Assembly (NCBI GenBank): GCA_019058365.1
Contig: JAHPZE010000003.1
Span: forward strand, 32,001 to 96,000
Reading direction: 5' to 3'
DNA: 64,000 nucleotides
Source of the DNA: Promethearchaeota archaeon
GTDB taxonomy: Archaea; Asgardarchaeota; Lokiarchaeia; Sigyniarchaeales; SOKP01
The notes under the pieces are model-generated. The model was given only the letters and a program-made list of their open reading frames with translations. It made no database searches and was not told where the DNA came from. Position 1 is the stretch's first letter, and every line of letters begins with the position of its first letter. Below, piece by piece: positions 7,271 through 63,391 of the stretch. A program made the position numbers and the translations under genes.

Positions 7271-8284
7271 ATGTCAGTCGATCGAGATAAACTTGAAGCA
7301 CTTCTAAAATGGTATAAGCAAGAAGTTGGAGAGAACTTAATCGCTGTTCTCATTGTAAATAGAGAAGGTTTAGTAATGTCTGCATTAAAAGGATCATCAG
7401 ATCAAGATGTAGAAGAAGATGTAATTGGTGGGGTGAGTGCATTAGTAGAACCTGTTTTAACCAGAATTACAGAGGAATTTAGTTCTGGATCTTTTGGAAC
7501 TGGAACGTTCGATACAGAAGAGCAAAGATTTATTTTTTGCGAAGCTGGTCCGGAAGCAATTTTTGTAACTGTTTTGAATTCTATTGCCATGGTAGATCCT
7601 GTTTTTCCATATGCATATTTAGCTGCAGAAAAAATTGCCAGAATATTTGATGGAAGAACTGTAAGTCCTGTAATTCCTAAATTATTCACAGAAAGAGAAA
7701 CGCCAAAGATTGAAAGAAAAATTGATAAATTACAGCAAATCAAGATACAATCAGGAGAATATGCGTTCAAGTTAATCCTTGGTGGCGAAGGTGGTGTTGG
7801 AAAAACCAGTATGGTTCATCGATTTGTTGAGGATGCGTTTCAGACTGATTATAAATCCACAATTGGGACATCCATAATGAAAAAAGAGTGTGATTTTCAA
7901 GGTTTAGAATCTAAAGTACGTTTTGTTATTTGGGATTTAGCGGGTCAAGCGCAATTTAAACGTGTAAGGCAAACATATCTAGGAAATGCCGAAGCAGGTA
8001 TTTTAGTTTTTGATGTAACTCGTAAAGAAACCTTCGATAAATTAGAAGATTGGTTCAATGAAATTAAGAAGGTATCTTTAACAATTTCATTAATATTAGT
8101 GGGAAATAAGATAGATCTGGAAGATCAACGGATTATATCGCTTGGACAAGGAGAAGAACTCGCACAAAAATTGAACCTTTCTTATATTGAAACTTCTGCT
8201 AAAACAGGGGAAAATATAAATGATGCATTTAAAATGCTCGCTTTACAAATGATAAAACGCTTTGTTTTTACTGAAGAAGTATGA
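7271..8284 (+). CDS. Roadblock/LC7 domain fused to a Rab-like small GTPase
   Basis: N-terminal roadblock pattern (AVLIVNREGLVMS); C-terminal GEGGVGKTS, WDLAGQ, NKID and ETSAK. Confidence 0.9.
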   Translation: MSVDRDKLEALLKWYKQEVGENLIAVLIVNREGLVMSALKGSSDQDVEEDVIGGVSALVEPVLTRITEEFSSGSFGTGTFDTEEQRFIFCEAGPEAIFVTVLNSIAMVDPVFPYAYLAAEKIARIFDGRTVSPVIPKLFTERETPKIERKIDKLQQIKIQSGEYAFKLILGGEGGVGKTSMVHRFVEDAFQTDYKSTIGTSIMKKECDFQGLESKVRFVIWDLAGQAQFKRVRQTYLGNAEAGILVFDVTRKETFDKLEDWFNEIKKVSLTISLILVGNKIDLEDQRIISLGQGEELAQKLNLSYIETSAKTGENINDAFKMLALQMIKRFVFTEEV

Positions 8285-8288
8285 TGAA

Positions 8289-8390
8289 AGCCTCTGGGGG
8301 GAATTGAACCCCCGACCTACAGATTACGAATCTTTAGCATTTTCTTCAAAGTGACATTTAATGTTGCTATACCTGCTAAGCCACAGAGGC
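8289..8390 (-). tRNA. tRNA-Thr(CGT) with a 29-nt intron at 28/29 (8334-8362)
   Basis: Acceptor GCCTCTG/CAGAGGC; spliced anticodon arm ACAGA-TTCGTAA-TCTGT; BHB central helix AGCA/TGCT with ACA and AAA bulges. Confidence 0.9.
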
Positions 8391-9607: not shown

Positions 9608-9711
9608 GGGCTATTGGCGCAGGCAGGTAGCGCAGCAGGCTTTTAACCTGACATTTAAGGGTATATCTCCCTTAAAAAGAAAGGTCGGGGGTTCAATTCC
9701 CCTATAGCCCG
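9608..9711 (+). tRNA. tRNA-Lys(TTT) with a ~30-nt insert near 43-45 (about 9653-9682)
   Basis: Acceptor GGGCTAT/ATAGCCC, D-stem GCGC/GCGC, CAGG-CTTTTAA-CCTG; the insert folds as TTTAAGGG/CCCTTAAA. Confidence 0.85.
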
Positions 9712-30269: not shown

Positions 30270-31889
30270 TTATAACGGGGCTCCACATTTATTACAAAAT
30301 TGATAATCGCTCGACAAAATTGCTCCACATTGTTGACAAATAATAATTTCTTTTTCTGAGGGTTTTGATACTTCTGATTGAACTGGTTTGCTTTCTATAT
30401 CTGGTATATTTGGTATAATTCTTAATTTACTAACCTCTTGAGTTTCAGATCTTTTTTTTGGTGTAAATGGCATAAAATCTGCGACTATAGGTTTCTCTGT
30501 CTCATCAGTTTTTTGACTTAAAGTTTGAAATAGAGAGGGTGTGCTTGATACTTCTGCTGTTGGGGTGGTAGGGACTGGGACTGTAGTTTTAGATTCTAAT
30601 TTTTCTTTCTTTTCTTTTTTTGGTTTTTCTTTTTTTTCTTTCTTAGCTTTTTTCATATCCTCTAATAATTTTTGTTGCCTTTCCTTTTCTTCTTGGAGTT
30701 TTTTCTCCTTCTCCGCTTTCTTTTTCTGCTTTTCAGCCTTTTTCATATCTTTCTTAGAATAAACTGGTTCTGGTAAGTTATCCATCAAAGAATCTGATTT
30801 TGTTTCTTGGGTATCTTGTGGCATTAAAAAAGGAGCACCACTTGAAGGTTTACTATCAATAGATGGTGTTACCAATGGAGATTGAAATCCTTCTGGTGCA
30901 GGAGCTGGAACTGGTACATTTGATGTAAAAGGTACTGCTTTTGGTTTATATATTTCATCTCTCCTCGTTGTAATGTTTGGTTCAGAAGGACTATGTAGTT
31001 GTTCTTCAGACAATTCATTCATTAATATTTCTTCTGGTGTTTTAAAGTCGAAAACGACGGGTTGTTTACTTGTTTTTTCAATTTGTGATTCTGGTAAAGG
31101 TATTTCTGGTTCAAATTCAGGTTCAAATATAGTTGTTGGTTCTGGAACTGGTGGAGCTTCAAACTCAAATTCAGGTTCTGGTTCAAATGTTGAACTTGGT
31201 TCAATATTTCCGGGAGATATAGGTTCTGGAACGGGTGGAGCTTCAAACTCAAATTCAGGTTCTAATTGCCTTAAAGGTGTTGGATAGGTTCCTGTTGCTG
31301 TTGTGAGAATTTGACCAGGACTGAACACAATTCCTTTTGAAATTAACTGATCGGGGACTCCTGATCCGATCATTAAACATGCAAGAATATAAAAACAATC
31401 ACCAACCCCTTCACCCGTTTTCGCTGAAGTTTCCATATAATACAAATTAAATTTACTTGTGAAATCATTAATTTCTTCAATGGAGACAGCTCTTAATTCG
31501 GTCAAATCACTTTTATTACCAACAAGGAGTAAAGGAATCTCTGTTTTAACATTCGCTCTTACTTCTTCTATCCATTGAGGAAGGTGTTCAAAGCTTGCAC
31601 CATTAGTAAGATCGAAGATCAATAATGCTCCTAAAGATCCTCTATAATACATTGGTCTAATTGAACTAAACCTCTCCTGTCCTCCGGTATCCCATATTTG
31701 AAGCTTTGCTCGTATTGAGCCTTCGACAGAATCGATATTAATTGTTTTTACGTGGAAATCTACCCCAATCGTCATTTTATAATCTTCAGTGAAAAAACCC
31801 TTACTAAATCTGAGAGTTAAAGCAGTTTTTCCGACTCCACCATCTCCTACGACAATCGATTTAAAGAGATAATCATATTCTTCAGCCAT
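30270..31889 (-). CDS. Rab-like GTPase with a long Pro/Glu-rich tail, Lys/Glu coiled coil and C-terminal zinc ribbon
   Basis: YDYLFK, GDGGVGKT, TIGVDF, WDTGGQERF, NKSD and ETSAK; CQQC...CNKC at the C-terminus. Confidence 0.92.
   Translation of the reverse strand: MAEEYDYLFKSIVVGDGGVGKTALTLRFSKGFFTEDYKMTIGVDFHVKTINIDSVEGSIRAKLQIWDTGGQERFSSIRPMYYRGSLGALLIFDLTNGASFEHLPQWIEEVRANVKTEIPLLLVGNKSDLTELRAVSIEEINDFTSKFNLYYMETSAKTGEGVGDCFYILACLMIGSGVPDQLISKGIVFSPGQILTTATGTYPTPLRQLEPEFEFEAPPVPEPISPGNIEPSSTFEPEPEFEFEAPPVPEPTTIFEPEFEPEIPLPESQIEKTSKQPVVFDFKTPEEILMNELSEEQLHSPSEPNITTRRDEIYKPKAVPFTSNVPVPAPAPEGFQSPLVTPSIDSKPSSGAPFLMPQDTQETKSDSLMDNLPEPVYSKKDMKKAEKQKKKAEKEKKLQEEKERQQKLLEDMKKAKKEKKEKPKKEKKEKLESKTTVPVPTTPTAEVSSTPSLFQTLSQKTDETEKPIVADFMPFTPKKRSETQEVSKLRIIPNIPDIESKPVQSEVSKPSEKEIIICQQCGAILSSDYQFCNKCGAPL
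31138..31263. repeat. 42-bp intragenic direct repeat (EPEFEFEAPPVPEP x2)
   Basis: 31138-31179 vs 31222-31263, one mismatch. Confidence 0.9.
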
Positions 31890-33258: not shown

Positions 33259-34287
33259 ATGATAGATCCAAAAGATATTGATTTCTATTCATTGGGATTT
33301 AATTTTATTGCAACAAAAACTATGTTTATGGCAAATCATAAAAATGGCAAATGGGAAGATGGAAAATTATTACCTTTTGGAAACTTCGAAATTTCTCCAG
33401 CATCATGTGTAATAAATTACGGACAAGGTATTTTTGAAGGAATGAAAGCCTTAAGAGCAAAGAATGGAGAAGTTACGTTGTTTAGACCAGCAGAAAATAG
33501 TAAAAGATTTAATTTTAGTGCTAGAAGAATGTTAATGCCAGAATATGATGCCGATAAGTTTATTGATGCTGTGAAGAGAGTGGTAAAGGCTAATGAAGAG
33601 TTTATTCCTCCTTATGATAGTGGAGGAGCTTTATATATCCGGCCGATTTTGTTTGGATATGGACCTATTCTTGGAGTACACTCAGCAGAAGAATTTAAAT
33701 TGATAATTTTTACAGTTCCTGTTGGACCTTATTTTCCAGAGGGCTTTAAAGGAATTAAGTTAGAAATATCAAAAAATTATACTAGAGCTGCTCCTGGAGG
33801 GACGGGTTCAGCAAAAACAATATGTAATTATGCTGGGACAATGTTGCCCGCAAAAGAAGCTAAAGCAAGAGGGTTTTCACAAATTTTATATTTAGATGCC
33901 ATTCATTTAGAGTATATCGAAGAAGTCGGTGCAGCTAATTTTTTCGCAATGATTAATGGTAAATTAGCCACTCCCAGAAAGTCGGGAACAATTTTAGAAG
34001 GAATTACGAGGGAATCTATTTTAGAACTTGCATCCAAAAAATTAGGAATTGAGGTTGAAGAGAGAGAAATTTCTTATAGAGAATTATTTAAAGATTCATG
34101 TACAGAAGCATTCTGTAGCGGTACTGCAGCGGTAATTACTCCAATTGCATCAGTTAATATAGAAGGGAACGAGCGAATCTTTAATGACCAAGAACCAGGG
34201 GAAATAACTAATAAAATATATAAATTGCTAACAGGAATTCAGCGAATAGAAATAGAAGATGAGTTTGGATGGATTACTAAAGTATAA
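33259..34287 (+). CDS. ilvE: Branched-chain amino acid aminotransferase
   Basis: YGQGIFEGMKA, LYIRP, ILEGITR and GTAAVITP. Confidence 0.95.
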   Translation: MIDPKDIDFYSLGFNFIATKTMFMANHKNGKWEDGKLLPFGNFEISPASCVINYGQGIFEGMKALRAKNGEVTLFRPAENSKRFNFSARRMLMPEYDADKFIDAVKRVVKANEEFIPPYDSGGALYIRPILFGYGPILGVHSAEEFKLIIFTVPVGPYFPEGFKGIKLEISKNYTRAAPGGTGSAKTICNYAGTMLPAKEAKARGFSQILYLDAIHLEYIEEVGAANFFAMINGKLATPRKSGTILEGITRESILELASKKLGIEVEEREISYRELFKDSCTEAFCSGTAAVITPIASVNIEGNERIFNDQEPGEITNKIYKLLTGIQRIEIEDEFGWITKV

Positions 34288-34301
34288 TTTTTTTTTATTT
34301 T

Positions 34302-34805
34302 TTAAATTCTTTCTATGAGAGAAATGAATGCTTTCTTAACGTTATCTCCTGTTTTTGAGGAGATTTTTAAATATCCTATAATATTATTATATTTTTTTAT
34401 TATATTTAATATATAATCATCAAAAATTTTACAGTTATATATATCAATAATATCAGATTTGTTTCCCAATATAAAAGCAGATATATTACCATATTGATTT
34501 AATTTTTTTATCCAATCTTCAACTCCTTCAAGCGTGTTGAATCGAGATAAGTCAAATAATACAAAAGCTGCTATAGAACCATCCACAAAATCATTTAACA
34601 ATTGTTTAAATTGAGATTGCCCTGCAAAGTCCCACATTACAAAATTATATTCTTGCTCATTTATAGTTAGATTTTTGGAAAAAAAATCAATTCCTTTAGT
34701 TAATTCGCAATTATCATCGAAATTATCATGGATTAAACGATTTAGAAACGATGTTTTCCCAACACCACCATCTCCAGAAACAATGATTTTTACTGTTTTT
34801 TTCAT
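34302..34805 (-). CDS. Rab/Ras-like small GTPase
   Basis: GDGGVGKT, WDFAGQ, NKSD and SSK. Confidence 0.9.
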   Translation of the reverse strand: MKKTVKIIVSGDGGVGKTSFLNRLIHDNFDDNCELTKGIDFFSKNLTINEQEYNFVMWDFAGQSQFKQLLNDFVDGSIAAFVLFDLSRFNTLEGVEDWIKKLNQYGNISAFILGNKSDIIDIYNCKIFDDYILNIIKKYNNIIGYLKISSKTGDNVKKAFISLIERI

Positions 34806-42193: not shown

Positions 42194-42730
42194 TTATAAC
42201 CTAACTTTTTTTATCATAAACCTTGTTATTGATTCAAATATTTTTTCTACATTTTGGCCTGTTTTTGATGAACACTCATAATATCCATCTAAATTATGTA
42301 ATTGTGCCAGATCAATAGCTTGTCCCATATCGATTGTTCTTAAATTCTCCAGATCTGTTTTACCTCCAACTATTATAATTGGAATTGATAGAATACCCTG
42401 CTTATCTTTGAAGAATGATAACCAGTTTTCAATACTTCTTAAACTACTCTTTCTAGTTATGTCATACATAAAAATGCCACCATGAGCACCTTTAACAAAA
42501 CTAGGAAAAAGAATTTGATATTTTTCTTCACCAGCAAAATCCCATATCTGAAGTACTACATTCTTTCCATCGACTTCTAGAGATTTTTTTGTAATATCCG
42601 TACCTATTGTCATTTTTAAGTCTTCTTTAAAAGTTTTTGTTACAAATCTTCGAGTTAAAGATGTTTTTCCAACACCATGATCGCCAAAAACACATAATTT
42701 ATATTTTAACTGTTCTGAGATAATATACAC
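42194..42730 (-). CDS. Rab-like small GTPase
   Basis: GDHGVGKT, TIG, WDFAGE, GKTD and ECSSK. Confidence 0.9.
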   Translation of the reverse strand: MYIISEQLKYKLCVFGDHGVGKTSLTRRFVTKTFKEDLKMTIGTDITKKSLEVDGKNVVLQIWDFAGEEKYQILFPSFVKGAHGGIFMYDITRKSSLRSIENWLSFFKDKQGILSIPIIIVGGKTDLENLRTIDMGQAIDLAQLHNLDGYYECSSKTGQNVEKIFESITRFMIKKVRL

Positions 42731-48810: not shown

Positions 48811-49290
48811 TATTTTATTCCTCCTACTTCTATTTACTTTATTTATTAGATTAGATCTAAATTTGTTATCTCAAGATTTTTTTCCATTGCTTAATTATGT
48901 CTTTTCCCTATTTAAGCTTTCTTTTAAATTTTCTAAAATACCCAGATTACATTATAAACGATCCCAATATCCTAAAGCTTTAAAATTATTTGAAGACGCA
49001 ATTCAGATTTTAGATAACCTTAAAATGAGCGTTGAGCCTATAACTGAAACTCTTAAAGAAAATATTGAATTTATCAAAAATGAGATGGAAAAAAAGCCAA
49101 TTAATTAATCAAAAATATCGAAGCTTGTGAATATACTCTTTTTTATTATATCTCTTTTTAGATCACTGCAGAAATGTAAAAATAATCTTAAATATTACCA
49201 AATCATACTAAATTCTTACTATTTTGACTAAGATATTTACCTAAAAACTTTCTGTAATAATTTTAAAATTTTAAAAAAGGGTAAAATTTT

Positions 49291-49308
49291 CCTTTAGAAC
49301 ATACTCCA
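49291..49308 (-). repeat. R9: core motif of the 23S-trailer repeat just 3' of tRNA-Pro
   Basis: + strand TAGAACATACTCC next to an A-tract, same orientation as the other copies. Confidence 0.6.
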
Positions 49309-49311
49309 CTA

Positions 49312-49385
49312 TGGGGTAGGAGGGACTTGAACCCTCGACCTCCTGATCCCGAACCAGGAATCCTACCAAGCTGGACTACCACCCC
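49312..49385 (-). tRNA. tRNA-Pro(CGG), intronless
   Basis: GGGGTGG/CTACCCC, CCTGG-TTCGGGA-TCAGG and GAGGG-TTCAAGT-CCCTC. Confidence 0.95.
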
Positions 49386-49466
49386 ATTTCGAACATTTCT
49401 CGTAATCCTTATACCTTAAACCCATTCCTTTTTCCCAAACTAAAAAAAATAAAAAATTTAAAAACC

Positions 49467-49525
49467 TCTATTATGAACGGACTCTTTCTCATCCCACCTC
49501 AATCCATACAAACCTTACCTTACCG
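49467..49525 (-). repeat. R8: highly degenerate 23S-trailer copy
   Basis: A-tract, then TGAACGGACTC...CTCAATCCATACAAACCTTACC, aligning with 61931-61983. Confidence 0.5.
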
Positions 49526-49568
49526 TTTCAAATAAAATATATATCCTAGGGTTCTTAAATTCTTACTT

Positions 49569-50758: not shown

Positions 50759-50867
50759 TTAGTTTAATTTTAATTGAATTTTAAATTTTATGGCCTAGCA
50801 TTTATAATTAAGAAGAAACATTTATTAAATCATTCTATAAAACAAAATTAGTTAAAAATAAAAGCTT

Positions 50868-50915
50868 CTACTCAAGAACATACTCCGTCCTTTCTTATCT
50901 CACTATTAAATCCTG
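50868..50915 (-). repeat. R7: 23S-trailer copy
   Basis: A-tract, then CTCAAGAACATACTCCGTCCTTTCTTATCTCA. Confidence 0.8.
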
Positions 50916-52408: not shown

Positions 52409-52507
52409 TCCGTTTCTTAATTTTTATTTACTAAATAGGATTTTTATGTTTTTAAACTTATTTGTCTAAGATTTAAACAATTCAAAAATTAAAAAAAATA
52501 AAATCCT

Positions 52508-52606
52508 TGCTCGTGAACATACTCCTTCCAGCTCTTCTCGTCTCAAACCAAGTATTTCTTCTCATCCATTTCTAAGCTACAAATCCTCATACCCTAAGCT
52601 TGAACT
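52508..52606 (-). repeat. R6: 23S-trailer copy
   Basis: A-tract, then TGCTCGTGAACATACTCC...TCTCAAACCA...CTAAGCTTGAAC. Confidence 0.85.
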
Positions 52607-54634: not shown

Positions 54635-54713
54635 AATGAAATTGTAGATAATGTACTTTTTAAGCTTTTGTGCTCATAAATTTAGTTTTCTATAAATATG
54701 AAATTACCGAAAT

Positions 54714-54870
54714 TGCTCAAGAGCATACTCCTTCCCGTCTTATCTCAAAAAAGCATTTAACAAAACTTACCATCTCCATCCACACCACAATCCCCTACAC
54801 GTTAAGCTTGAACCTTGTGATTCCTCTTTCAACACTATACACCAGTGCTATTGAGAGCAGCGTGTTAAGA
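54714..54870 (-). repeat. R5: full 23S trailer plus last ~30 nt of 23S
   Basis: Colinear with about 61930-62080, including TCCCCTACACGTTAAGCTTGAACCTTGTG and GTGCTATTGAGAG. Confidence 0.92.
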
Positions 54871-54873
54871 ATC

Positions 54874-55365
54874 TTAAGAATATAACTTCCTTAAATATGA
54901 TTTTAATGTGTCAATATTTTTAAAGTAAAATAAGCTTTCCTCTTCCTTAAAAAAAGGTTTTAATAAACCTCCTCTTTTAAGGACTTCTGTAATTTCCGCA
55001 TCTCTTAATACGAATACTTTTGTCTTTTTAGAAAGTTCTCTAAAGGAGAGGATGATTCCCATTTCGATCATATGACCTCCTTTATCGTGTTCTATAATCA
55101 TGATGATTTCATTCGAAAATTTAGCAATAAGATCAAATTTAAAAATTAAATTCTCAAGATGGGTACGTCTAAATTCTTTTTCAAAAAATCCTAGGTTATT
55201 CTTAACAGAATTTACAATCTTTTGTACTTCTTGAAGAGTAGTGAAAGCTTCTTCATTGTACGAACCACAAATAAAGATCTTGTTTTTCTTCAAATCGTAA
55301 ACTGAAAAAATATTAGTAAATTCATCTAAAAAATCATCCCATGCATTATCGTGTGAAAACTGCAT
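54874..55365 (-). CDS. Hypothetical protein, possible nucleoside 2-deoxyribosyltransferase-like fold
   Basis: IFICGS and SNEIIMII...GGHMIEMG pattern. Confidence 0.55.
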   Translation of the reverse strand: MQFSHDNAWDDFLDEFTNIFSVYDLKKNKIFICGSYNEEAFTTLQEVQKIVNSVKNNLGFFEKEFRRTHLENLIFKFDLIAKFSNEIIMIIEHDKGGHMIEMGIILSFRELSKKTKVFVLRDAEITEVLKRGGLLKPFFKEEESLFYFKNIDTLKSYLRKLYS

Positions 55366-55538
55366 TCTCTACTCCCAATAAATATAAAATAAATTAGAAA
55401 TTCATTTATGGTATAATTTATTATATACCAATAATAATTGACTCAATTAATTTTGAGTTAAATTTAAATAATTGATTATGCATATTTAATTTGAAATTAG
55501 ATGAAATATAGAATATAAATAATGAGAGTGAAAAAGTT

Positions 55539-55880
55539 TTGGATACTCCCAAAAACCTTGAAAATATAAGGAAAGAATTGGAAATCATATCAGAAAAGAC
55601 ACGATATAAGATACTGCTAACTTTATTAGCTAGTGAAAAATCTCTCTCATTCAGTCGATTTAGGGAACTTTTACCTTCTATTCCAGAGAATACTCTGAAT
55701 TATCATCTTAAAATCCTTAAAGAACAAAATTTTATTAAAAATGAAAAAAGAATGGGATACAAACGTTCTGAACCTCGCTCTTTTTATTCTCTTAGGAAAA
55801 AATCCATTGATCTGCTTGGAAATTTAGGTTTAAATGATGTGAAAGAAGAATTTCAAGCGTTATTTAAACAAATGACATAA
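55539..55880 (+). CDS. ArsR-like winged-helix regulator
   Basis: TRYKILLTL, LSFS and NTLNYHLKIL. Confidence 0.85.
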   Translation: MDTPKNLENIRKELEIISEKTRYKILLTLLASEKSLSFSRFRELLPSIPENTLNYHLKILKEQNFIKNEKRMGYKRSEPRSFYSLRKKSIDLLGNLGLNDVKEEFQALFKQMT

Positions 55881-55901
55881 TTTATTTTTTAAAAAAAAAA
55901 A

Positions 55902-55970
55902 CGCTGCTCAAGAACATACTCCCCCTCGTCTTGTCCGTTCCATCTCGTTTTTATTCTTATCACCACCCCC
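55902..55970 (-). repeat. R4: 23S-trailer copy
   Basis: A11 tract, then CGCTGCTCAAGAACATACTCC and a pyrimidine-rich tail. Confidence 0.8.
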
Positions 55971-56173
55971 AAACACAAACAAAAAAAAATAAAAAACCAT
56001 AGCTAATATAACAGAAATTTTATAATCTTAAAAAACTCCTTTATTTAATATAACTAGACAAATTTATCAAAATATTGGACTCATAATTGTTATGACCATA
56101 TATCCTGAAATTGTATAATCTTATAGTTGTATTATTCTTTATATTTAAATATAACATTAAGTTGAAATAAGTT

Positions 56174-56839
56174 ATGAAATATACTTCTATCTTTGATGTA
56201 ATTGGCCATATAATGGTTGGACCAAGTTCAAGCCATACTGCAGGAGCGTGTCAAATTGCGTATGTTGCACGGTTATTATTTGGAAAAAAGCCTAAAACTG
56301 TAAAAATAGGACTTCATGGTTCATTTGCAGAGACATATAAAGGTCATGGTACGGATATCGCAATTTTAGCTGGACTACTTGGATTTACACCTGAAGATGA
56401 TATGATCAAAAACGCATTTGAAATTGCTGAAAAAGAGGGGCTTGATTATTCATTTGAACTTGTGGATTTAGGGGTGGATTACCATCCAAATTCAGTTAGT
56501 ATAGAGATGTTTGATGGATCAGAAAAAATGAATGTAATAGGTTCTTCAATTGGAGGAGGTAACATAATAATCAAAGAAGTTAATAGCTTAGAAGCAGGAT
56601 TTGGGGGAGAACCAAATACGCTCGTAATATTAAATCATGACAAGATTGGGGCACTTGTAAATATAGCAAATACACTTCAAAAATTTAAATTAAATATAGG
56701 ATCGATGAAAATCTCCAGAAATTTGAAAAAAAAGATATCTTTAACATGGCTTGAAGCAGATACCGCGATACCAGAAGATCTAATTGATGCATTAAAAAAA
56801 TATCCAGAAATAATTTGGGTGAGGGTAATCAATGTTTGA
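56174..56839 (+). CDS. sdaAB: Fe-S L-serine dehydratase beta subunit
   Basis: MVGPSSSHTAGA, GHGTD, HPN, SIGGG and an ACT domain. Confidence 0.95.
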   Translation: MKYTSIFDVIGHIMVGPSSSHTAGACQIAYVARLLFGKKPKTVKIGLHGSFAETYKGHGTDIAILAGLLGFTPEDDMIKNAFEIAEKEGLDYSFELVDLGVDYHPNSVSIEMFDGSEKMNVIGSSIGGGNIIIKEVNSLEAGFGGEPNTLVILNHDKIGALVNIANTLQKFKLNIGSMKISRNLKKKISLTWLEADTAIPEDLIDALKKYPEIIWVRVINV

Positions 56840-57698
56840 ATCTATTTCTAATCTGCTCAATGAATCTCAAACAAAAGGGATTCCATTACATGAATTAATA
56901 ATAAACGATGAAATGGAATTTCAAAATATTCCTAAGCGGATTATAATTGAAAAGCTTAATAAATCTTTAATTATAATGAAACAGTCTCTTGAAAAAGCAC
57001 TTGTAAGTGATATTGAATTGCCGATCAAAGAAGCAAGCCATCAGGCAAAAAGAATGCTTTCACCAGGAATTTTCTGTGGAACTAATTTAAAAGAAGCCGT
57101 GGGCTGGGCAATGGCTATCGGTGAATATAATAGTGGTATGGGATTAATTGTTGCTTGTCCTACAGCAGGTTCTTCTGGAACCCTACCTGCTGTTCTTTTT
57201 AAAGCTAAAGAAATTCTAAATAAATCGGATGATGATGTATTAAACGCTTTAATCGTTGCGGCAGCAATAGGGGCAATTATTGGTAATAACGCAATGCTTT
57301 CGGGAAGTGAAGGAGGTTGTCAAGCTGAAATTGGAGTTGCATCTGCAATGGCGTCGGCTGCTATAACTTATATGGCTGGAGGAACCCATCTTCAGATAGA
57401 CAATGCGATTGCATTAACATTAAAAAATCTATTAGGACTTGTTTGTGATCCTGTTGCCGGATTAGTAATTTCACCATGCATTAAAAGGAATGCTATAGGT
57501 GTGGTTAACGCATTTTTAGCTGCTGAAATGGCAATATCAGGAGTTGTATCTATTATCCCAGCAGATGAAGTTGTGGATGCTATGATGAAAGTTGGTCGTA
57601 AATTACCATATGAATTAAAAGAGACAGGAAAGGGTGGAATAGCAGCAACTAAAACGGGGAAAAGAATAAGAAAGAGCCTTTTTTCTGATATGTTATAA
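56832..57698 (+). CDS. sdaAA: Fe-S L-serine dehydratase alpha subunit
   Basis: ACPTAGS, GGCQAEIG, GLVCDPVAG, PCIKRN and ETGKGG. Confidence 0.95.
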   Translation: MFESISNLLNESQTKGIPLHELIINDEMEFQNIPKRIIIEKLNKSLIIMKQSLEKALVSDIELPIKEASHQAKRMLSPGIFCGTNLKEAVGWAMAIGEYNSGMGLIVACPTAGSSGTLPAVLFKAKEILNKSDDDVLNALIVAAAIGAIIGNNAMLSGSEGGCQAEIGVASAMASAAITYMAGGTHLQIDNAIALTLKNLLGLVCDPVAGLVISPCIKRNAIGVVNAFLAAEMAISGVVSIIPADEVVDAMMKVGRKLPYELKETGKGGIAATKTGKRIRKSLFSDML

Positions 57699-58012
57699 CA
57701 TTTATAAATCCAATAGAAAAAAAAGGATGAGTGAGAAATTAAAAATTGAATAATTAGGTCTTTATATTTTTTTTTATTCTCCCTATTTTTATGATTGGAA
57801 TTGTTCACTAAATTTTCATTGAAATCAGGCAGAAATAAATATATCCATTAATATATGTTCTTGAAAAATTAATCATCTCGAATTTTAATAATATACGTTC
57901 TAAAAATATAATTTCTTGCATTTGTTCATCTAATTGTTCAAGATTTAGTTCGAAATAAAAACAAAAATTATAAATATTATTGTTCTATTATATAATATAA
58001 TGGTGTTCAATT

Positions 58013-58687
58013 ATGAAAATGATGATTGAAAAAGATAGAAAAGAGATAATTTCAGAAGTGCAAAAATATGGTGGTATAGGTCTGCGACACCAATCTTTAA
58101 GAGTACACAAGAATGGGGCAAAATTTCCAATAAGTAAGAACTATATTGATGATGAACTTTTGGATCCCGAAATAGTATATACTCTTATTTTAATACCGGA
58201 AATTAAAATTGCTACTAAAACTAGTGTAGCATTAAGTTATTTTGCTCGAAAAAAAGGTCCTCTCGTATTTTATACATATCCCGAGAGCATTCTTGAAGAA
58301 GGTTTTTCCGTTCAAATTGCAAATATAATGGTTCAAGTATCTAAAGAGGGTTTCTTTGCCAACCAGTCAAGCACTGTACCATCAACCTTGAATTATTATT
58401 TTGAAATTCCTTCAGAATGGGCTCGTGGAAATAAAGAAATGCTCATGATCAGCGTGTTTTTAGATAAACCTATAAATAAGCTACTAGAAAAAAGGATTCA
58501 GGAAATATGTACTGATTTTGCTTTGCAATTAAAAAATGCAGAAGGACTTTTTAAAGCGCTATATATGGAAACAATTGATAAAATTCCGGAAAAGGATCGT
58601 TCAGACATTAAAAAATTTAATGAAAATTTAAAAACTAAAATAAAAACTTTATATGAGGAAATAGAAATATCGAGTAAGGAAAAATGA
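58013..58687 (+). CDS. Hypothetical protein, possible longin/uDENN-like domain
   Basis: LSYF...GPLVFYTYP and SEWARG..MLMIS pattern. Confidence 0.55.
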   Translation: MKMMIEKDRKEIISEVQKYGGIGLRHQSLRVHKNGAKFPISKNYIDDELLDPEIVYTLILIPEIKIATKTSVALSYFARKKGPLVFYTYPESILEEGFSVQIANIMVQVSKEGFFANQSSTVPSTLNYYFEIPSEWARGNKEMLMISVFLDKPINKLLEKRIQEICTDFALQLKNAEGLFKALYMETIDKIPEKDRSDIKKFNENLKTKIKTLYEEIEISSKEK

Positions 58688-58691
58688 AGAT

Positions 58692-58804
58692 GGTCGCCCG
58701 AAAGCTCCCTACGTACACCCACACCTCACTAACCCCGTCTTTTACGGGTGTACTTGTCTCGCATACTCAGTTCGCACCACCGCGCTCTGATCTCGTTACT
58801 CAGC
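58692..58804 (-). repeat. R3: 113-nt copy of mature 23S sequence (62083-62195)
   Basis: 7 mismatches and no gaps against 62083-62195. Confidence 0.96.
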
Positions 58805-60625
58805 TTAGGGAACAAAATAATGGGTATTTTGTTGGTGATCCTGTGAATGTATTTTCCCAGTCGATCTAAGTTTATTCAATGTTTCTTTTAGATTTTCTTT
58901 TCCGAATTCTAACATTTTAGGATCTTTAAGAAAATTTTCTAACCTTTTTTCTAAAGCTTCTAATGTAAAAGCAGAACCTTGATTATCTTTCAAATAATTG
59001 TAAATTTTTTCTTTAAAATCTTCTTCAATTGAATATTCCTTCTTAATTGTTGTTGTTTTTTTAAATGCCAGTTTCTCAATAATTTCCATATTCCTTTTTG
59101 TTAAAGCAAAGTCACTTTTAATTTCAAGTGCTTTTTGGTAGCATTTATATGCTACCTCGTATTGCATGAGCATTTGTTGGGCAACACCATTAGCTGTCCA
59201 TGATTTTTCATCAGGGAAGAATCCATGATGCTTAGCTTCTACAGATTTCAGATGTGTTTTTGAAAGATCAGGACGCTTGAATTTAGAAATGTTATTCTTA
59301 GCCATTAGACCATACATCATAATTTGTATTGGATTAAATCCTAATTGCTGACTTTTTGCAAAACACATAAGGGCATTTTTAAACTCTCCCAAGGCGCAGT
59401 GCGCTTTCCCACGATAAAACCATGCTGGTCCTGATGTGGGCTCACGTTCATTGATTCTAATTAATGTAGTAAGAGCACTTTCAAAATTACCAGTTGCTTC
59501 TTCTTCAACGACCATTTGCAATAATTCTTCTATATTCTCTTTATGCATGGGAGTCCTGCAATACGGGCATATACCACTGTTGGTATAATTTTTCTTTCCA
59601 CAGCGGGGACAATAATCACGTCCATCAACAACTGAATGAATTGTACCTTCTACTCCCATCGTACTGAAATGCTTCAATGCATCGATTTGTTCTTTAGCAT
59701 TTTCATGATTAGGTTTTAACTCCAATGTTTTTTTATAATCAGCCAAGGCTCTCTCAAATTGATTAGTTTTTTTGAAACTTGTTGCTCGGTTATAGTATGC
59801 CCCCTCAAAATCTGGATTAATTTCGATAGATTTAGAATAACTTAATATTGCTTCATCATATCTCTCCAGTGAATCTAATGCAAGCCCTTTATTATTATAT
59901 GAAGCAGAATAATTGGGATTTAACTCTATAGCTCTATCATAACATTCAATAGCTTTTTCAAATAAATTTTGGCTATCATAAACCCACCCTTTATGAACCC
60001 ACGCTAAAAATAATGTTGGTTCATATTTTAATGCTTTTTCGAAATAAACAAGTGCATTTTTTTGATTCTGAGACATTTGGTTAATGATACCTAAGTAAAG
60101 ATAAGCCTCAGCAAATTCTGGGAATATTTTAATCGCAGAATTAATCGCATTAAGAGCTTCAGACATTTTATTTCGATGGGTAAGTTTAATACCCTGTTTA
60201 AATAAGTCTAAAGCTTTTTTTGGAATGTTTTTGCCTTCAACTTTTAATGATCCAAAAAACTCCTTCTGTCGCTTTGCTTGCATTAGTAGAGGGAGAGCTT
60301 GTCGAAAATTAGGATTATGCTTCAAAATTTTCTCAATTGTCTCTATTGATTCATCATATTTTCCCTCCATTAAGAGCATTAATGCAAGATTGAGAAGTGT
60401 AAAGGGATTGTAAGGATCATAAGAAAGTGCACGATTAAGACATTCTTTTGCTTTCTCAAACTCCTCAAGGTGGAGATAAACACTTCCCATATTGCAAAAT
60501 AACTCTGGATCGTCATCTACTAGTTTATAAGCCTTTTTAAAAAAATTTAAAGCTTCTTGTGGTTTACGATTATTCAATGCTATTGTGCCTTGGTTGTATA
60601 AATCTTCGTATTCTTTACTATACAA
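58805..60625 (-). CDS. TPR-repeat protein with an internal zinc ribbon
   Basis: Many TPR units (A...Y..A.EL.P) and CPRC...CPYC. Confidence 0.92.
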   Translation of the reverse strand: MYSKEYEDLYNQGTIALNNRKPQEALNFFKKAYKLVDDDPELFCNMGSVYLHLEEFEKAKECLNRALSYDPYNPFTLLNLALMLLMEGKYDESIETIEKILKHNPNFRQALPLLMQAKRQKEFFGSLKVEGKNIPKKALDLFKQGIKLTHRNKMSEALNAINSAIKIFPEFAEAYLYLGIINQMSQNQKNALVYFEKALKYEPTLFLAWVHKGWVYDSQNLFEKAIECYDRAIELNPNYSASYNNKGLALDSLERYDEAILSYSKSIEINPDFEGAYYNRATSFKKTNQFERALADYKKTLELKPNHENAKEQIDALKHFSTMGVEGTIHSVVDGRDYCPRCGKKNYTNSGICPYCRTPMHKENIEELLQMVVEEEATGNFESALTTLIRINEREPTSGPAWFYRGKAHCALGEFKNALMCFAKSQQLGFNPIQIMMYGLMAKNNISKFKRPDLSKTHLKSVEAKHHGFFPDEKSWTANGVAQQMLMQYEVAYKCYQKALEIKSDFALTKRNMEIIEKLAFKKTTTIKKEYSIEEDFKEKIYNYLKDNQGSAFTLEALEKRLENFLKDPKMLEFGKENLKETLNKLRSTGKIHSQDHQQNTHYFVP

Positions 60626-60759
60626 TAAAAATCACATTTTTGTCTTTGTAATAAAATATTTGTTTAATTAATTTATAAATATTTTTAAGATTGAGATATG
60701 AACATTGAATACCCAAATTTGGATACCTTCTTAATTAAAAATAAGAAAAAATAAAACCG

Positions 60760-60874
60760 TGCTCTAAAACATACTCCAGTCCTTCTCGTCTCAAACCATT
60801 CAATCCTTACCTTATTGCTCCGTCCACGCGACAATCCCCTACACGCTAAGCCTGAACCTTATGATTCCCCTTTC
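60760..60874 (-). repeat. R2: 23S-trailer copy
   Basis: Colinear with 61930-62041, roughly 80% identical by eye; exact TCCCCTACACGCTAAGCCTGAACCTT. Confidence 0.93.
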
Positions 60875-60875
60875 T

Positions 60876-61253
60876 TTAATAACTCCATGCCTTCATTTCT
60901 AATTCTTTTATTTTTCTCTCTTAATTTCTGTATTTCATAGAGATTTTTCCTAACTAAATGTTCTATATATTCTCCTAGTTTTCTTTTTTCCATTAATAAT
61001 ATATTCTTATCTCTCAGATTGTCTATTTCAATTTGATTCCCTAAATATTCAATTGGCCTCTTAATATTCTTATCTCAACTCCAGTTCTTTTTTTTGCTTG
61101 AATTAAACTCTCTTTATATTTCCCTTCAGATGTAATCGGAAGCAATTGATTAATTGTAAACAATTTGTCTTCTAAGTCTACTAAATAATGATTAAAAAGC
61201 TCTTTTCTCTTTCCTAAATCCTTAATATCTATTGCTATTTTTTCGCAATCCAT
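60876..61253 (-). pseudogene. Probable frameshifted coiled-coil gene
   Basis: The 70-aa ORF 61041-61253 continues after a one-base shift as GNQIEIDNLRDKNILLMEKRK...AWSY, with its stop at 60876. Confidence 0.5.
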
Positions 61254-61311
61254 TTTAAGAATTAAAGTTGAAAACGTTACTACTAAATAAGTAAAAGAAA
61301 TATAAAAATAA

Positions 61312-61356
61312 TGCTCATGAACATACTCCTTCTAAACCCTTCTCATCTCAAACCAT
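61312..61356 (-). repeat. R1: short 23S-trailer copy
   Basis: TGCTCATGAACATACTCCTTC...CCTTCTCATCTCAAACCA after an A-tract. Confidence 0.88.
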
Positions 61357-61870
61357 GATAATTGTATAAGAAACTACCAATTCGCTCAAAAACCTCTTCA
61401 CATCCCAACCCAGTCCCCGCTGAAATCTCCATATATCCCATCAAATTATTATCACTTGCAAAATTCCTAATATCTTCTCCAGAAACCTTGCGAACCCCTA
61501 CTAAATCGAGTTTATTTCCAATTAAGTAAATTGGAATATCTCCTGCATATTCCTTAATCATTCTAGGAAATTCAGATAAATAGGTAAAGGAATTTAAATT
61601 TGTCAGATCATAAAAAAGAATGACAACATCTGACCCTGATATAAATATTCTTAAATCACGTCTAAAACTTTCTTTATTCGAAACATTCCAAATCATAAAA
61701 TTAATTACACACTCTCCAACAAACAATTCCTTTTTATAAGCCTCTACTCCTATGGTCTCTAAATGATCTTCAACGAAAAAATGATCATCGATAGACTTCC
61801 TAAGAAAAGTACGCCTTCCAACCTCTCTATCACCGATTATGACAAGTCTGAATATATAATTAGGCTTCAC
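61343..61870 (-). CDS. Degenerate Rab-like small GTPase
   Basis: GDREVGRR (G1), TIGVE, WNVS (G3), NKLD and EISA. Confidence 0.85.
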   Translation of the reverse strand: MKPNYIFRLVIIGDREVGRRTFLRKSIDDHFFVEDHLETIGVEAYKKELFVGECVINFMIWNVSNKESFRRDLRIFISGSDVVILFYDLTNLNSFTYLSEFPRMIKEYAGDIPIYLIGNKLDLVGVRKVSGEDIRNFASDNNLMGYMEISAGTGLGCEEVFERIGSFLYNYHGLR

Positions 61871-61910
61871 AATACTTCTATATCAATTTTTCCTAAATAA
61901 ATCATATGAT

Positions 61911-61925
61911 AAAAAAAAAATAAAA
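61911..61925 (-). terminator. Oligo-T terminator of the 23S transcript
   Basis: TTTTATTTTTTTTTT on the minus strand right after the G-rich trailer. Confidence 0.7.
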
Positions 61926-61927
61926 TC

Positions 61928-62050
61928 GCTGCTCTAGAGCACACTCCATCCCTTCTCTTATCTCAAATCATTCATTCCTTACCATCCCCTCCACGCTACA
62001 TTCCCCTACACGCTAAGCCTGAACCTTGTGGTTCCTTTTTCAACACCACA
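61928..62050 (-). other. 23S pre-rRNA 3' trailer (R0, reference repeat copy)
   Basis: G-rich 120-nt stretch between the 23S end and the T-tract; hairpin TGTGG..CCACA and terminal palindrome TGCTCTAGAGCA. Confidence 0.7.
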
Positions 62051-62147
62051 CACTCGTGCTATTGAGAGTGGCGGGCTGAACAGGTCGCCCGAAAGCTCCC
62101 TGCGTACACCCCCACCTCACTAACCCCGTCTTTTACGGGTGCACTCG

Positions 62148-62391
62148 TCTCGCATACTCAGTTCGCGTCACCGCGCCCTGATCTCGTTACTCAGCATCCC
62201 ATACATTCAAATTATAATGCTTCTCGCTTCATGCTCATGCATATGTCTACCCTCATGCTTCCGCTTCCACAATCAAGCACACACTTACACTCGCACTTAC
62301 ACTCCGATTGGCTTCCGGTTTTCACAGGAGAACCTTACCAATCACACTAACTTAAATACACAACATACCTCGCAACACTCTTTACACGAGA
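62148..62391 (-). other. ES39 (helix 98) expansion segment, about 244 nt
   Basis: Non-conserved insert closed by TCTCG/CGAGA at the H98 position. Confidence 0.82.

Positions 62392-62580: not shown

Positions 62581-63391
<811 letters not shown>

Follow-up and report, generated by a model that had tools for sequence, protein, structure and literature searches.

The DNA analysed here is a 64,000-nt window of a Promethearchaeota archaeon genome (GCA_019058365.1, contig JAHPZE010000003.1, positions 32,001-96,000 of the forward strand), which holds the 3' end of a 23S rRNA gene, the relics R1 to R8 and the genes among which they lie (Table 1). In this genus of Promethearchaeia (Lokiarchaeia-type Asgard archaea), such relics accumulate on the 3' side of the lone 23S gene. 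They are decayed, 5'-truncated pseudocopies of the 23S 3' end and its trailer, and they align, all in identical orientation, to the last 37-190 nt of the 23S plus trailer. At the live gene, the Rfam LSU_rRNA_archaea alignment stops at 62042; in the trailer, the processing stem of the 23S has its 3' arm at 61947-61930, and an oligo-T tract runs to about 61911. The conserved core of the relics is this same 3' arm followed by oligo-T, and its reverse complement is found at C35:98361, in the leader upstream of the 23S 5' end. The core motif is confined to the array locus and to that complement in the leader, and we therefore rejected it as a genome-wide terminator motif. An Rfam search of the relics and the trailer returned LSU rRNA only, with no 5S and no other family. 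In a literature search of limited coverage, which does not prove novelty, we found no account of arrays of 23S 3'-end relics from Asgard archaea.

Relic boundaries were drawn with Smith-Waterman, blastn and an nhmmer profile covering the 3' end of the 23S and its trailer. Strict Smith-Waterman under-called decayed relics, and the nhmmer boundaries were used instead; for R1, R3 and R5 the boundaries are sharp and agree among the three methods. Genes were called by longest-ORF heuristics rather than by a trained gene finder.

Table 1. Genes and 23S-derived relics in the window (window coordinates; profile positions refer to the nhmmer profile)
Feature	Coordinates	Strand	Remarks
Live 23S rRNA 3' end (to ~62042) and trailer	61905..62198	-	Reference for all relics
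Ras-family small GTPase, 175 aa	61343..61870	-	Pfam PF00071, E 3.8e-30
Relic R1	61290..61356	-	Profile positions 236-297; core and T-rich tail
Broken coiled-coil-like gene	60859..61253	-	70-aa ORF 61253..61041 and 44-aa ORF 60993..60859
Relic R2	60735..60874	-	Profile positions 160-300
TPR protein, 606 aa	58805..60625	-	Pfam; C-terminal domain of ~70 aa
Relic R3	58688..58804	-	Profile positions 6-122; mature 23S piece without trailer
224-aa gene	58013..58687	+	Function unassigned; TGA abuts 3' end of R3
Relic R4	55890..55935	-	Core and oligo-T; between two + strand genes, no stop at 5' side
163-aa gene	54874..55365	-	Genus-conserved resident downstream of 23S
Relic R5	54692..54869	-	Profile positions 121-297; last ~37 nt of 23S and trailer, oligo-T decayed
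Relic R6	52485..52605	-	5' side toward start of divergent gene
Relic R7	50847..50902	-	5' side toward start of divergent gene
Relic R8	49445..49527	-	Decayed; after 159-aa gene, before tRNA-Pro

The preliminary description of this DNA had four minus-strand genes ending at their junctions with R1, R2, R3 and R5, and it had proposed orthologue alignments to map the breakpoints and any replaced C-termini. Those alignments show native stops in three genes, with breakpoints 0-4 nt beyond, and a replaced C-terminus in the GTPase. The TPR gene stop (58807-58805) does abut R3 as described, with a spacer of 0. Of its closest relatives, P0001 (93% identity, 523 aa) and P0002, the latter terminates at the same residue, and homologues of the C-terminal domain exist; a single metagenome scan added only a relative at 25%. 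R3 itself, 94% identical to 62195-62083, sits flush between two convergent stops, since a fifth junction lies at its end opposite the TPR gene, where it is touched by the TGA of the 224-aa gene on the + strand. Six orthologues of that gene (80-87% nucleotide identity) have the same stop, and homology ceases there; R3 ends at TGTTCA, of which TTCA is common to the flank of the 224-aa orthologues. Both the TPR and the 224-aa stops are thus native, with the breakpoint 0-4 nt beyond each.

The 163-aa gene, present in 31 of 54 genomes of the genus at 44 loci, gives a similar picture. From its stop (54876-54874) to R5 the spacer is 4 to 16 nt depending on whether the relic is taken to start at 54869 (nhmmer), 54862 (another determination) or 54857 (Smith-Waterman), so the earlier figure of about 4 nt agrees with the nhmmer boundary. 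The junction reads TAA-GATT and then CAGCCC-type rRNA sequence. GATT, the first 4 nt, is the native flank of the gene in relic-less orthologues, its TT is common to that flank and to the rRNA TGTTCA, and the same junction recurs in G050, G072 and G090. Here too the stop is native, with the breakpoint 0-4 nt beyond it.

The GTPase ends differently. Its ORF runs from 61870 to 61343 and R1 starts at 61356, therefore 14 nt of the ORF lie inside R1: two thirds of a His codon, Gly, Leu, Arg and the TGA. R1 thus supplies the last 3.7 codons and the stop, as had been noticed before; the codon matching this TGA is CGA in the paralogue R2 and TAA in the live trailer. GTPase orthologues in G059 (56% identity) and G074 end in other C-terminal tails, relative to which the tail in the window is replaced. 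It is at R2 that the original picture fails. A TAA does exist at 60878-60876, about 2 nt from R2, and had been taken for the end of the coiled-coil relic; its frame is that of the 70-aa ORF, in which eight stops follow 61041. Because this frame is dead and the only ORF that reaches R2, the 44-aa one, runs five codons in and ends 13-15 nt inside the relic, that description is wrong in detail. Elsewhere in the window, R4, R6 and R7 face gene starts rather than stops, and the alignable spacer between the 159-aa gene (stop 49569) and R8 is 41 nt, though probably about 10.

How unusual is such flushness? In the window alone, five of six gene-end junctions fall within -16 to +4 nt (binomial about 0.002 at p = 0.2, calculated post hoc). 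In related arrays, which had been suggested as a yardstick, over some 28 junctions in 15 related genomes, the stop-to-relic spacer ranges from -22 to +147 nt with a median of 26.5, and the excess at 5 nt or less (8 of 28, against a genome background of 17-20%) is not significant (p = 0.09-0.18). The clustering is therefore tighter than background within the window but not across homologous arrays. Since the boundaries of decayed relics are under-called, the spacers in the other genomes are upper bounds, and the true distribution may be tighter than the one measured.

These numbers invite the reading that the relics, with their fuzzy boundaries, merely fill short intergenic spaces and that stops are nothing special. 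In fact, the median spacer between convergent genes in this genome is 39 nt, and 17-20% of all same-strand and convergent spacers measure 5 nt or less. Yet R3 puts 117 nt between two stops, above the usual convergent spacer, and is flush on both sides; the concordance of three methods at R1, R3 and R5 speaks against fuzziness; and two ORF tails are relic-encoded. Pure coincidence, to which the non-significant excess across the 28 junctions lends some weight, is in our judgement rather improbable. As for the read-on tails, the median read-on in the trailer is 4.5 codons, and tails of 4-5 codons are what is expected from a stop-rich trailer.

The relic arrays mark a gene-turnover hotspot in the archaea closest to eukaryotes, and their junctions are the only record of gene entry and movement there. 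Array content differs even between species whose proteins are about 95% identical: G000 and G050 share synteny but for the rRNA-proximal part, which is replaced wholesale, and homology resumes exactly at the live oligo-T end. The tRNA-Pro block follows three different genes in G000, G050 and G053, with breakpoints inside relics. Integrated elements are known to accrete at the 3' ends of tRNA and tmRNA genes, one form of this being the 'gene capture' that SSV-type integrases carry out in the chromosomes of archaea. There, as here, accessory genes lie in blocks set apart by direct, partial repeats of a conserved RNA gene's 3' end, and the blocks nearest the RNA gene vary most between relatives. 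Here, however, the 3' end of the 23S rRNA and its trailer are the target, no integrase or split integrase halves were found at the arrays scanned or their borders, the relic repeats range in length between about 45 and over 220 nt, and many blocks are single ordinary genes.

Foreign DNA could still have been anchored at the 23S 3' end, through either homology-facilitated illegitimate recombination or the Campbell insertion of circular DNA with an rRNA 3' fragment. The resident 3' end would be pushed distally, each junction would be the place where an imported piece ends, and retention would be limited to pieces that end shortly beyond an intact gene. Such import would account for the replacement beside the 23S in G000 and G050, whose proximal breakpoint is the live trailer end, for the retention of the 3' side and loss of the 5' side that the nhmmer profile gives for every relic, for the accessory-type cargo and for the 2-4 nt of putative microhomology at junctions. 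It sits poorly with the 163-aa gene, an old genus-wide resident whose relic is flush all the same, and with relic B of G050, which carries a 13-nt copy of the 163-aa-stop/R5 junction and was copied from another relic rather than from a live rRNA gene; on its own it also predicts no tightness at stops. We regard it as unlikely, although it overlaps our preferred reading, given below, as a source of relics and does not exclude that reading. Homology-facilitated illegitimate recombination (de Vries and Wackernagel 2002; Prudhomme et al. 2002, both in the reference list of PMC3646047) resembles the arrays in its one-sided anchor in a conserved gene, in the displaced remnant of the anchor and, putatively, in the joining of the other end at 0-4 nt of microhomology. 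Its known setting is bacterial natural transformation, whereas here it would have acted in archaea, is read from sequence only and would require relic-to-relic recombination in addition.

A Pfam scan of the array ORFs of G000, G050, G045, G054 and G053, together with the 10 kb that precede the 23S and the flank on the distal side, returned no recombinase, and among about 30 proteins in and around the arrays of these five genomes there is no integrase, transposase or nuclease. This bears on integron-like capture, in which a recombinase encoded elsewhere would insert and excise gene-plus-relic cassettes at a core, the imperfect palindrome TGYTCnnGAGCA, with one cut at the gene end. Integrons have been reported in Archaea, and their cassettes consist of an ORF and attC. 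There are likenesses: a compact ORF is closely trailed by a conserved, partly palindromic element in one-orientation arrays, the newest differences lie beside the 23S, three junctions are 0-4 nt from native stops, and GTPase cassettes recur in three genomes (G000, G059, G074) at differing array positions. The core is indeed conserved far better than the rest of the relic, but pairing with the 23S leader, together with the terminator, can account for this. Unlike attC, which has paired inverted core sites set at a constant place behind each ORF, the relics are rRNA-derived, with a core that pairs with the 23S leader and carries oligo-T, and have a variable 5' extent, truncation points being spread over more than 20 profile positions (nhmmer); stop offsets run from -22 to +147 nt. 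Orthologous cassettes also differ in their junctions, the GTPase stop lying at -14 nt in G000, +27 to +38 in G059 and about +20 in G074; many blocks contain several genes, in both orientations; and no IntI-type tyrosine recombinase lies beside the arrays scanned. Integron-like capture is thus very unlikely, and the scattered truncation points and spacers, the differing GTPase junctions and the missing recombinase likewise tell against the precise joining at gene ends that had first been considered. Just as doubtful is a cassette system without an array-borne recombinase, in which the joining of new DNA to the H101 hairpin or trailer would favour the 3' ends of genes (at termination-linked breaks, for instance), so donating the rRNA terminator to each captured gene, with the relic as portable homology for later shuffling.

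Native stops, 0-4 nt of putative microhomology, a twice-used H101 site, relics copied from relics and the lack of a recombinase together argue for recombination and repair rather than for a mobile-element enzyme. We propose, with a probability of roughly 0.58, that ordinary recombination and deletion in a compact genome made the relic-gene junctions, and that no enzyme recognising gene ends is needed. Each junction would be created by illegitimate recombination at 0-4 nt of microhomology, by way of a duplication, a deletion or a one-sided homologous insertion, and one of the breakpoints would fall in the 3' end of the 23S or in its trailer; the loop of the H101 hairpin (TGTTCA) would have served as breakpoint at least twice. 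Homologous recombination between relics would later shuffle the blocks, and small deletions would erode the junctions. Flushness would then have three sources: the genome tolerates very little DNA past stop codons; a breakpoint may clip a dispensable tail, leaving the ORF to read a few codons into the stop-rich trailer; and selection would act on both flanks of a junction, preserving the gene and, across from it, the terminator core of the relic. The microhomologies with TGTTCA, TT at the 163-aa/R5 junction and TTCA at R3/224-aa, are short, lie in AT-rich DNA and amount to two cases only. What counts against this proposal is the presence in one window of three native stops with breakpoints at 0-4 nt, tighter than background. 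R3, only 6% diverged and flush on both sides, has had little time for repeated trimming, and the simplest reading of the three stops would be a single microhomology-level breakpoint near each.

R3 and R5 might look like a single relic that a 3.8-kb insertion has cut in two, as their profile coordinates would fit (R3 ends at 122, R5 starts at 121). We rejected this: the 163-aa/R5 junction recurs in G050, G072 and G090, and in G050, the one of the three checked for a 3'-truncated half, there is no R3-like half, and the far end of the block is different. A hotspot at TGTTCA shared by R3 and R5 is at least as likely.

The preliminary description had also offered trimming by selection and deletion, which would turn the old rRNA trailer into the captured gene's 3' UTR. 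This is partly supported and does better than precise joining: it fits a deletion in G053, where the 163-aa gene breaks off at codon ~59 and is joined there to the core of a relic, as well as the read-on tails and the kept oligo-T; the three native stops at 0-4 nt are left unexplained by trimming alone. The stop-codon claim, once a candidate for a new mechanism, is reduced to mostly ordinary compaction of the genome, while the relic array itself still merits study. Of 53 relics, 46 have a T5+ run within 40 nt of the core, as do 20% of control positions, which makes it plausible that relics serve upstream genes as terminator or 3' UTR. As at archaeal oligo-T terminators and the 23S processing stem (bulge-helix-bulge), the relics keep the 3' arm of the stem with T5+ directly behind it, and can therefore, putatively, end the upstream gene's transcript; unlike those, they are not part of the rRNA operon but stand behind protein genes, in a putative role.

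The archaeal 23S rRNA gene at the right end of the window continues with its 5' part beyond it (C35:96001-98215, C35 being the contig), and is followed downstream by eight relics (R1-R8) in a single orientation, each a partial copy of the 23S 3' end plus trailer. Their boundaries were drawn with Smith-Waterman alignment, blastn and a 303-position nhmmer profile.

Coordinates of the features discussed (window positions unless a locus handle, L, of a related genome is given)
Feature	Position	Strand	Remark
23S 3' end	near 62042	-	
23S trailer	62041 to ~61905	-	oligo-T tract at its end
stretch enclosing the LAGLIDADG ORF	62581-63357		
LAGLIDADG ORF	63286..62651	-	in the 23S intron
23S 3'-domain insertion	~62150-62390	-	~240 nt, between model positions 2882 and 2883
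R1	61356-61290	-	profile positions from 236
R2	60874-60735	-	profile positions from 160
R3	58804-58688	-	profile positions 6-122; mature 23S only; 94% identical to live gene
R4	55935-55890	-	
R5	54869-54692	-	profile positions from 121
R6	52605-52485	-	profile positions from 177
R7	50902-50847	-	
R8	49527-49445	-	
GTPase gene	61870..61343	-	Ras family by Pfam
44-aa ORF	60993..60859	-	reaches R2
TPR gene	60625..58805	-	TAA 58807-58805
224-aa gene	58013..58687	+	
163-aa gene	55365..54874	-	
tRNA-Pro(CGG), arm-motif copy, T-tract	49267-49386; L060 7880-8000; L065 3720-3832	- (window)	
GGAAAGGTAAATTCAGnGTCTGATTTCAATGAAAAT element	57790-57831; L060 11160-11215; L079 after 3492; L073, L098, L101, L103, L115, L118	- (window)	

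The preliminary description had four minus-strand genes stopping at the edges of R1, R2, R3 and R5, and as a whole this observation stands, with genes called by longest-ORF heuristics. The end of the GTPase is encoded by R1 (two thirds of a His codon followed by Gly-Leu-Arg and TGA; at this TGA codon, R2 reads CGA and the live trailer TAA, in the same frame), the TPR stop abuts R3 and the 163-aa gene stops 4 nt short of where nhmmer starts R5. Only R2 needs correction: the TAA assigned to a coiled-coil gene (60878-60876) is in the frame of a 70-aa ORF already broken by eight stops, and the ORF that truly reaches R2 reads five codons into it before stopping. There is also a fifth junction, the TGA of the 224-aa gene lying against the 3' end of R3. 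Since this TGA and the TPR TAA each touch R3, the relic fills the whole gap between two convergent stops. R4, R6 and R7 are 98-238 nt away from the gene starts that they face. R8 lies behind a stop, with 41 nt between them by alignment; comparison with the related genome G050 suggests a true value of about 10 nt.

Orthologues locate several breakpoints. The TPR stop is native, because P0002, a 614-aa relative with 59-63% identity, shares the C-terminal domain and terminates at the same residue (HYFIP versus HYFVP). The closest relative (P0001, 93% identity, 523 aa) and several more distant ones that end where it does are without this ~80-aa domain, which has therefore been gained or lost as a module. 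The stop of the 224-aa gene is common to six orthologues (80-87% nucleotide identity), and homology ends exactly there; their 3' flanks all differ, three carry TTTCA, and the rRNA at the R3 end point reads TGTTCA, so that a 3-4 nt microhomology is possible at this junction. The 163-aa gene is kept in 31 of the 54 genus genomes and at 44 loci in GTDB species; its end is always at residue 162-168. A relic follows it only in the genome studied here (G000) and in G050, G072 and G090 (91-93% identical), beginning at the identical rRNA position in all four. Its closest relic-less orthologues have TAA, TAG or TGA followed by GATTT, and the relic-bearing loci have TAA-GATT and then rRNA from CAGCCC of TGTTCAGCCC. 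From these alignments, the junction with R5 goes back to a single inherited event that broke 2-4 nt beyond the stop, with TT shared.

Is joining then precise at gene ends, as had been proposed? Some 28 distinct junctions that have an upstream ORF on the same strand were measured across 15 genomes. Their alignable spacers run from -22 to +147 nt (negative where the stop is inside the relic; median 26.5), those of decayed relics being upper bounds; well-preserved relics give -16, 0, 4, 8, 24, 31, 36, 37, 57, 95, 112 and 133 nt. Eight of the 28 are at most 5 nt, five of them negative. Over the whole of G000, 17-20% of the spacers between same-strand or convergent genes are that short (median convergent spacer 39 nt), and the excess is not significant (p = 0.09-0.18), becoming so only against stop-to-T5 distance (p = 0.004). 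Within G000 itself, 5 of 6 gene-end junctions fall between -16 and +4 nt, tighter than background in a set chosen after the fact. Relics opposite gene starts lie much further off (median 147 nt), because a promoter needs room. For an ORF that enters the trailer at random, the median distance to the first stop is 4.5 codons, in line with the tails of 4-5 codons at R1 and R2 and with comparable extensions into relics in G053 and G056; the G041 stop is the first codon of the relic itself (TGA).

The GTPase also argues against precision. In G059 (contig C6) and G074, orthologous cassettes within relic arrays conserve the upstream relic and promoter region, with stop-to-core distances of 27-38 and about 20 nt, respectively. 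Their tails read ..ENI(L/M).. versus ..SFLYNYHGLR in G000, and because stop position and tail both differ, the G000 junction is a later fusion. G074 also has a second small GTPase immediately behind the live trailer (L123 2040-2110); its TAA is 0-5 nt ahead of a shortened relic core, a flush junction independent of those in G000. At least four further Ras-family paralogues occur in the window (7760-8242, 31392-31874, 34284-34790 and 42215-42703; 29-37% identical to the R1-joined GTPase). The R1-joined GTPase itself has 3 to 18 matches per related genome at E <= 1e-20. With this spread of spacers, these differing GTPase junctions and no integrase, transposase or nuclease among array cargo or flanking genes, precise joining is not upheld.

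Other junctions are imprecise or reshuffled. In G053, the 163-aa gene is severed at about codon 59 and joined to a relic core. A G050 relic (L060 11323-11345) with an internal deletion of ~55 nt bears at its 5' side TTAAGATTCTTAA, which reproduces 13 nt of the 163-aa-stop/R5 junction. The template of this relic was therefore another relic plus a few bases of gene end, and relics arise from relics too, not from the live gene alone. tRNA-Pro(CGG), with a further copy of the processing-stem arm and a T-tract immediately downstream, sits behind three different genes at differing array positions in G000, G050 and G053, with breakpoints inside relics. G000 and G050 are syntenic (~95% protein identity); their rRNA-proximal 4-7 kb are wholly different, and homology picks up again at the final base of the live oligo-T tract.

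We envision that breakpoints would be imprecise, one side of each lying in the 23S 3' end or trailer, and the H101 hairpin loop used at least twice; that later homologous recombination between relics would shuffle blocks; and that small deletions would erode junctions in a genome keeping almost nothing past stop codons, selection preserving both the gene and, across the junction, the arm-plus-oligo-T core. This combination is the best account of the flush junctions. It does not cover three native stops with breakpoints within 4 nt in one window, nor the flush fit of the young R3 on both sides.

What selection might hold on to is visible in the core, GGAGTRTGYTYnnRAGCA, which in the 4.7-Mb genome is confined to the relic/23S locus, plus one copy in reverse complement within the 23S 5' leader, which identifies the core as the 3' arm of the 23S processing stem. 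Within 40 nt, 46 of 53 relic cores (15 genomes) retain a T5+ tract, versus 20% of control sites; judging from sequence, a trailer relic very plausibly terminates transcription of the gene upstream. Arrays of relics are present in 10 of 10 genus members sampled, and several further genera of the family have them too; the literature, partially covered, yielded no description of such arrays. The conserved GGAAAGGTAAATTCAGnGTCTGATTTCAATGAAAAT element, found behind the oligo-T of live trailers or relics in many genomes, may be ancestral sequence downstream of the trailer; G000 retains only its 3' half.

R3 starts within the 23S 3'-domain insertion, which resembles the large ES39-type expansion reported for Asgard rRNA. 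R3-like 3'-domain fragments without trailer occur in other genomes too (L063 1403-1463; L064 2654-2696; L067 4961-5047; L072 4069-4189; L098 8206-8288). The intron ORF is intact, with two LAGLIDADG-type motifs, in an insert skipped by the Rfam alignment. Upstream of the 23S gene lie housekeeping genes, with no 16S gene in the 12 kb examined (reaching ~10 kb beyond the 23S 5' end); G+C of this Lokiarchaeia-type Asgard archaeon is ~30%. Two tRNA matches, 8289-8390 (minus strand, 102 nt) and 9608-9711 (plus strand, 104 nt), probably both contain introns.
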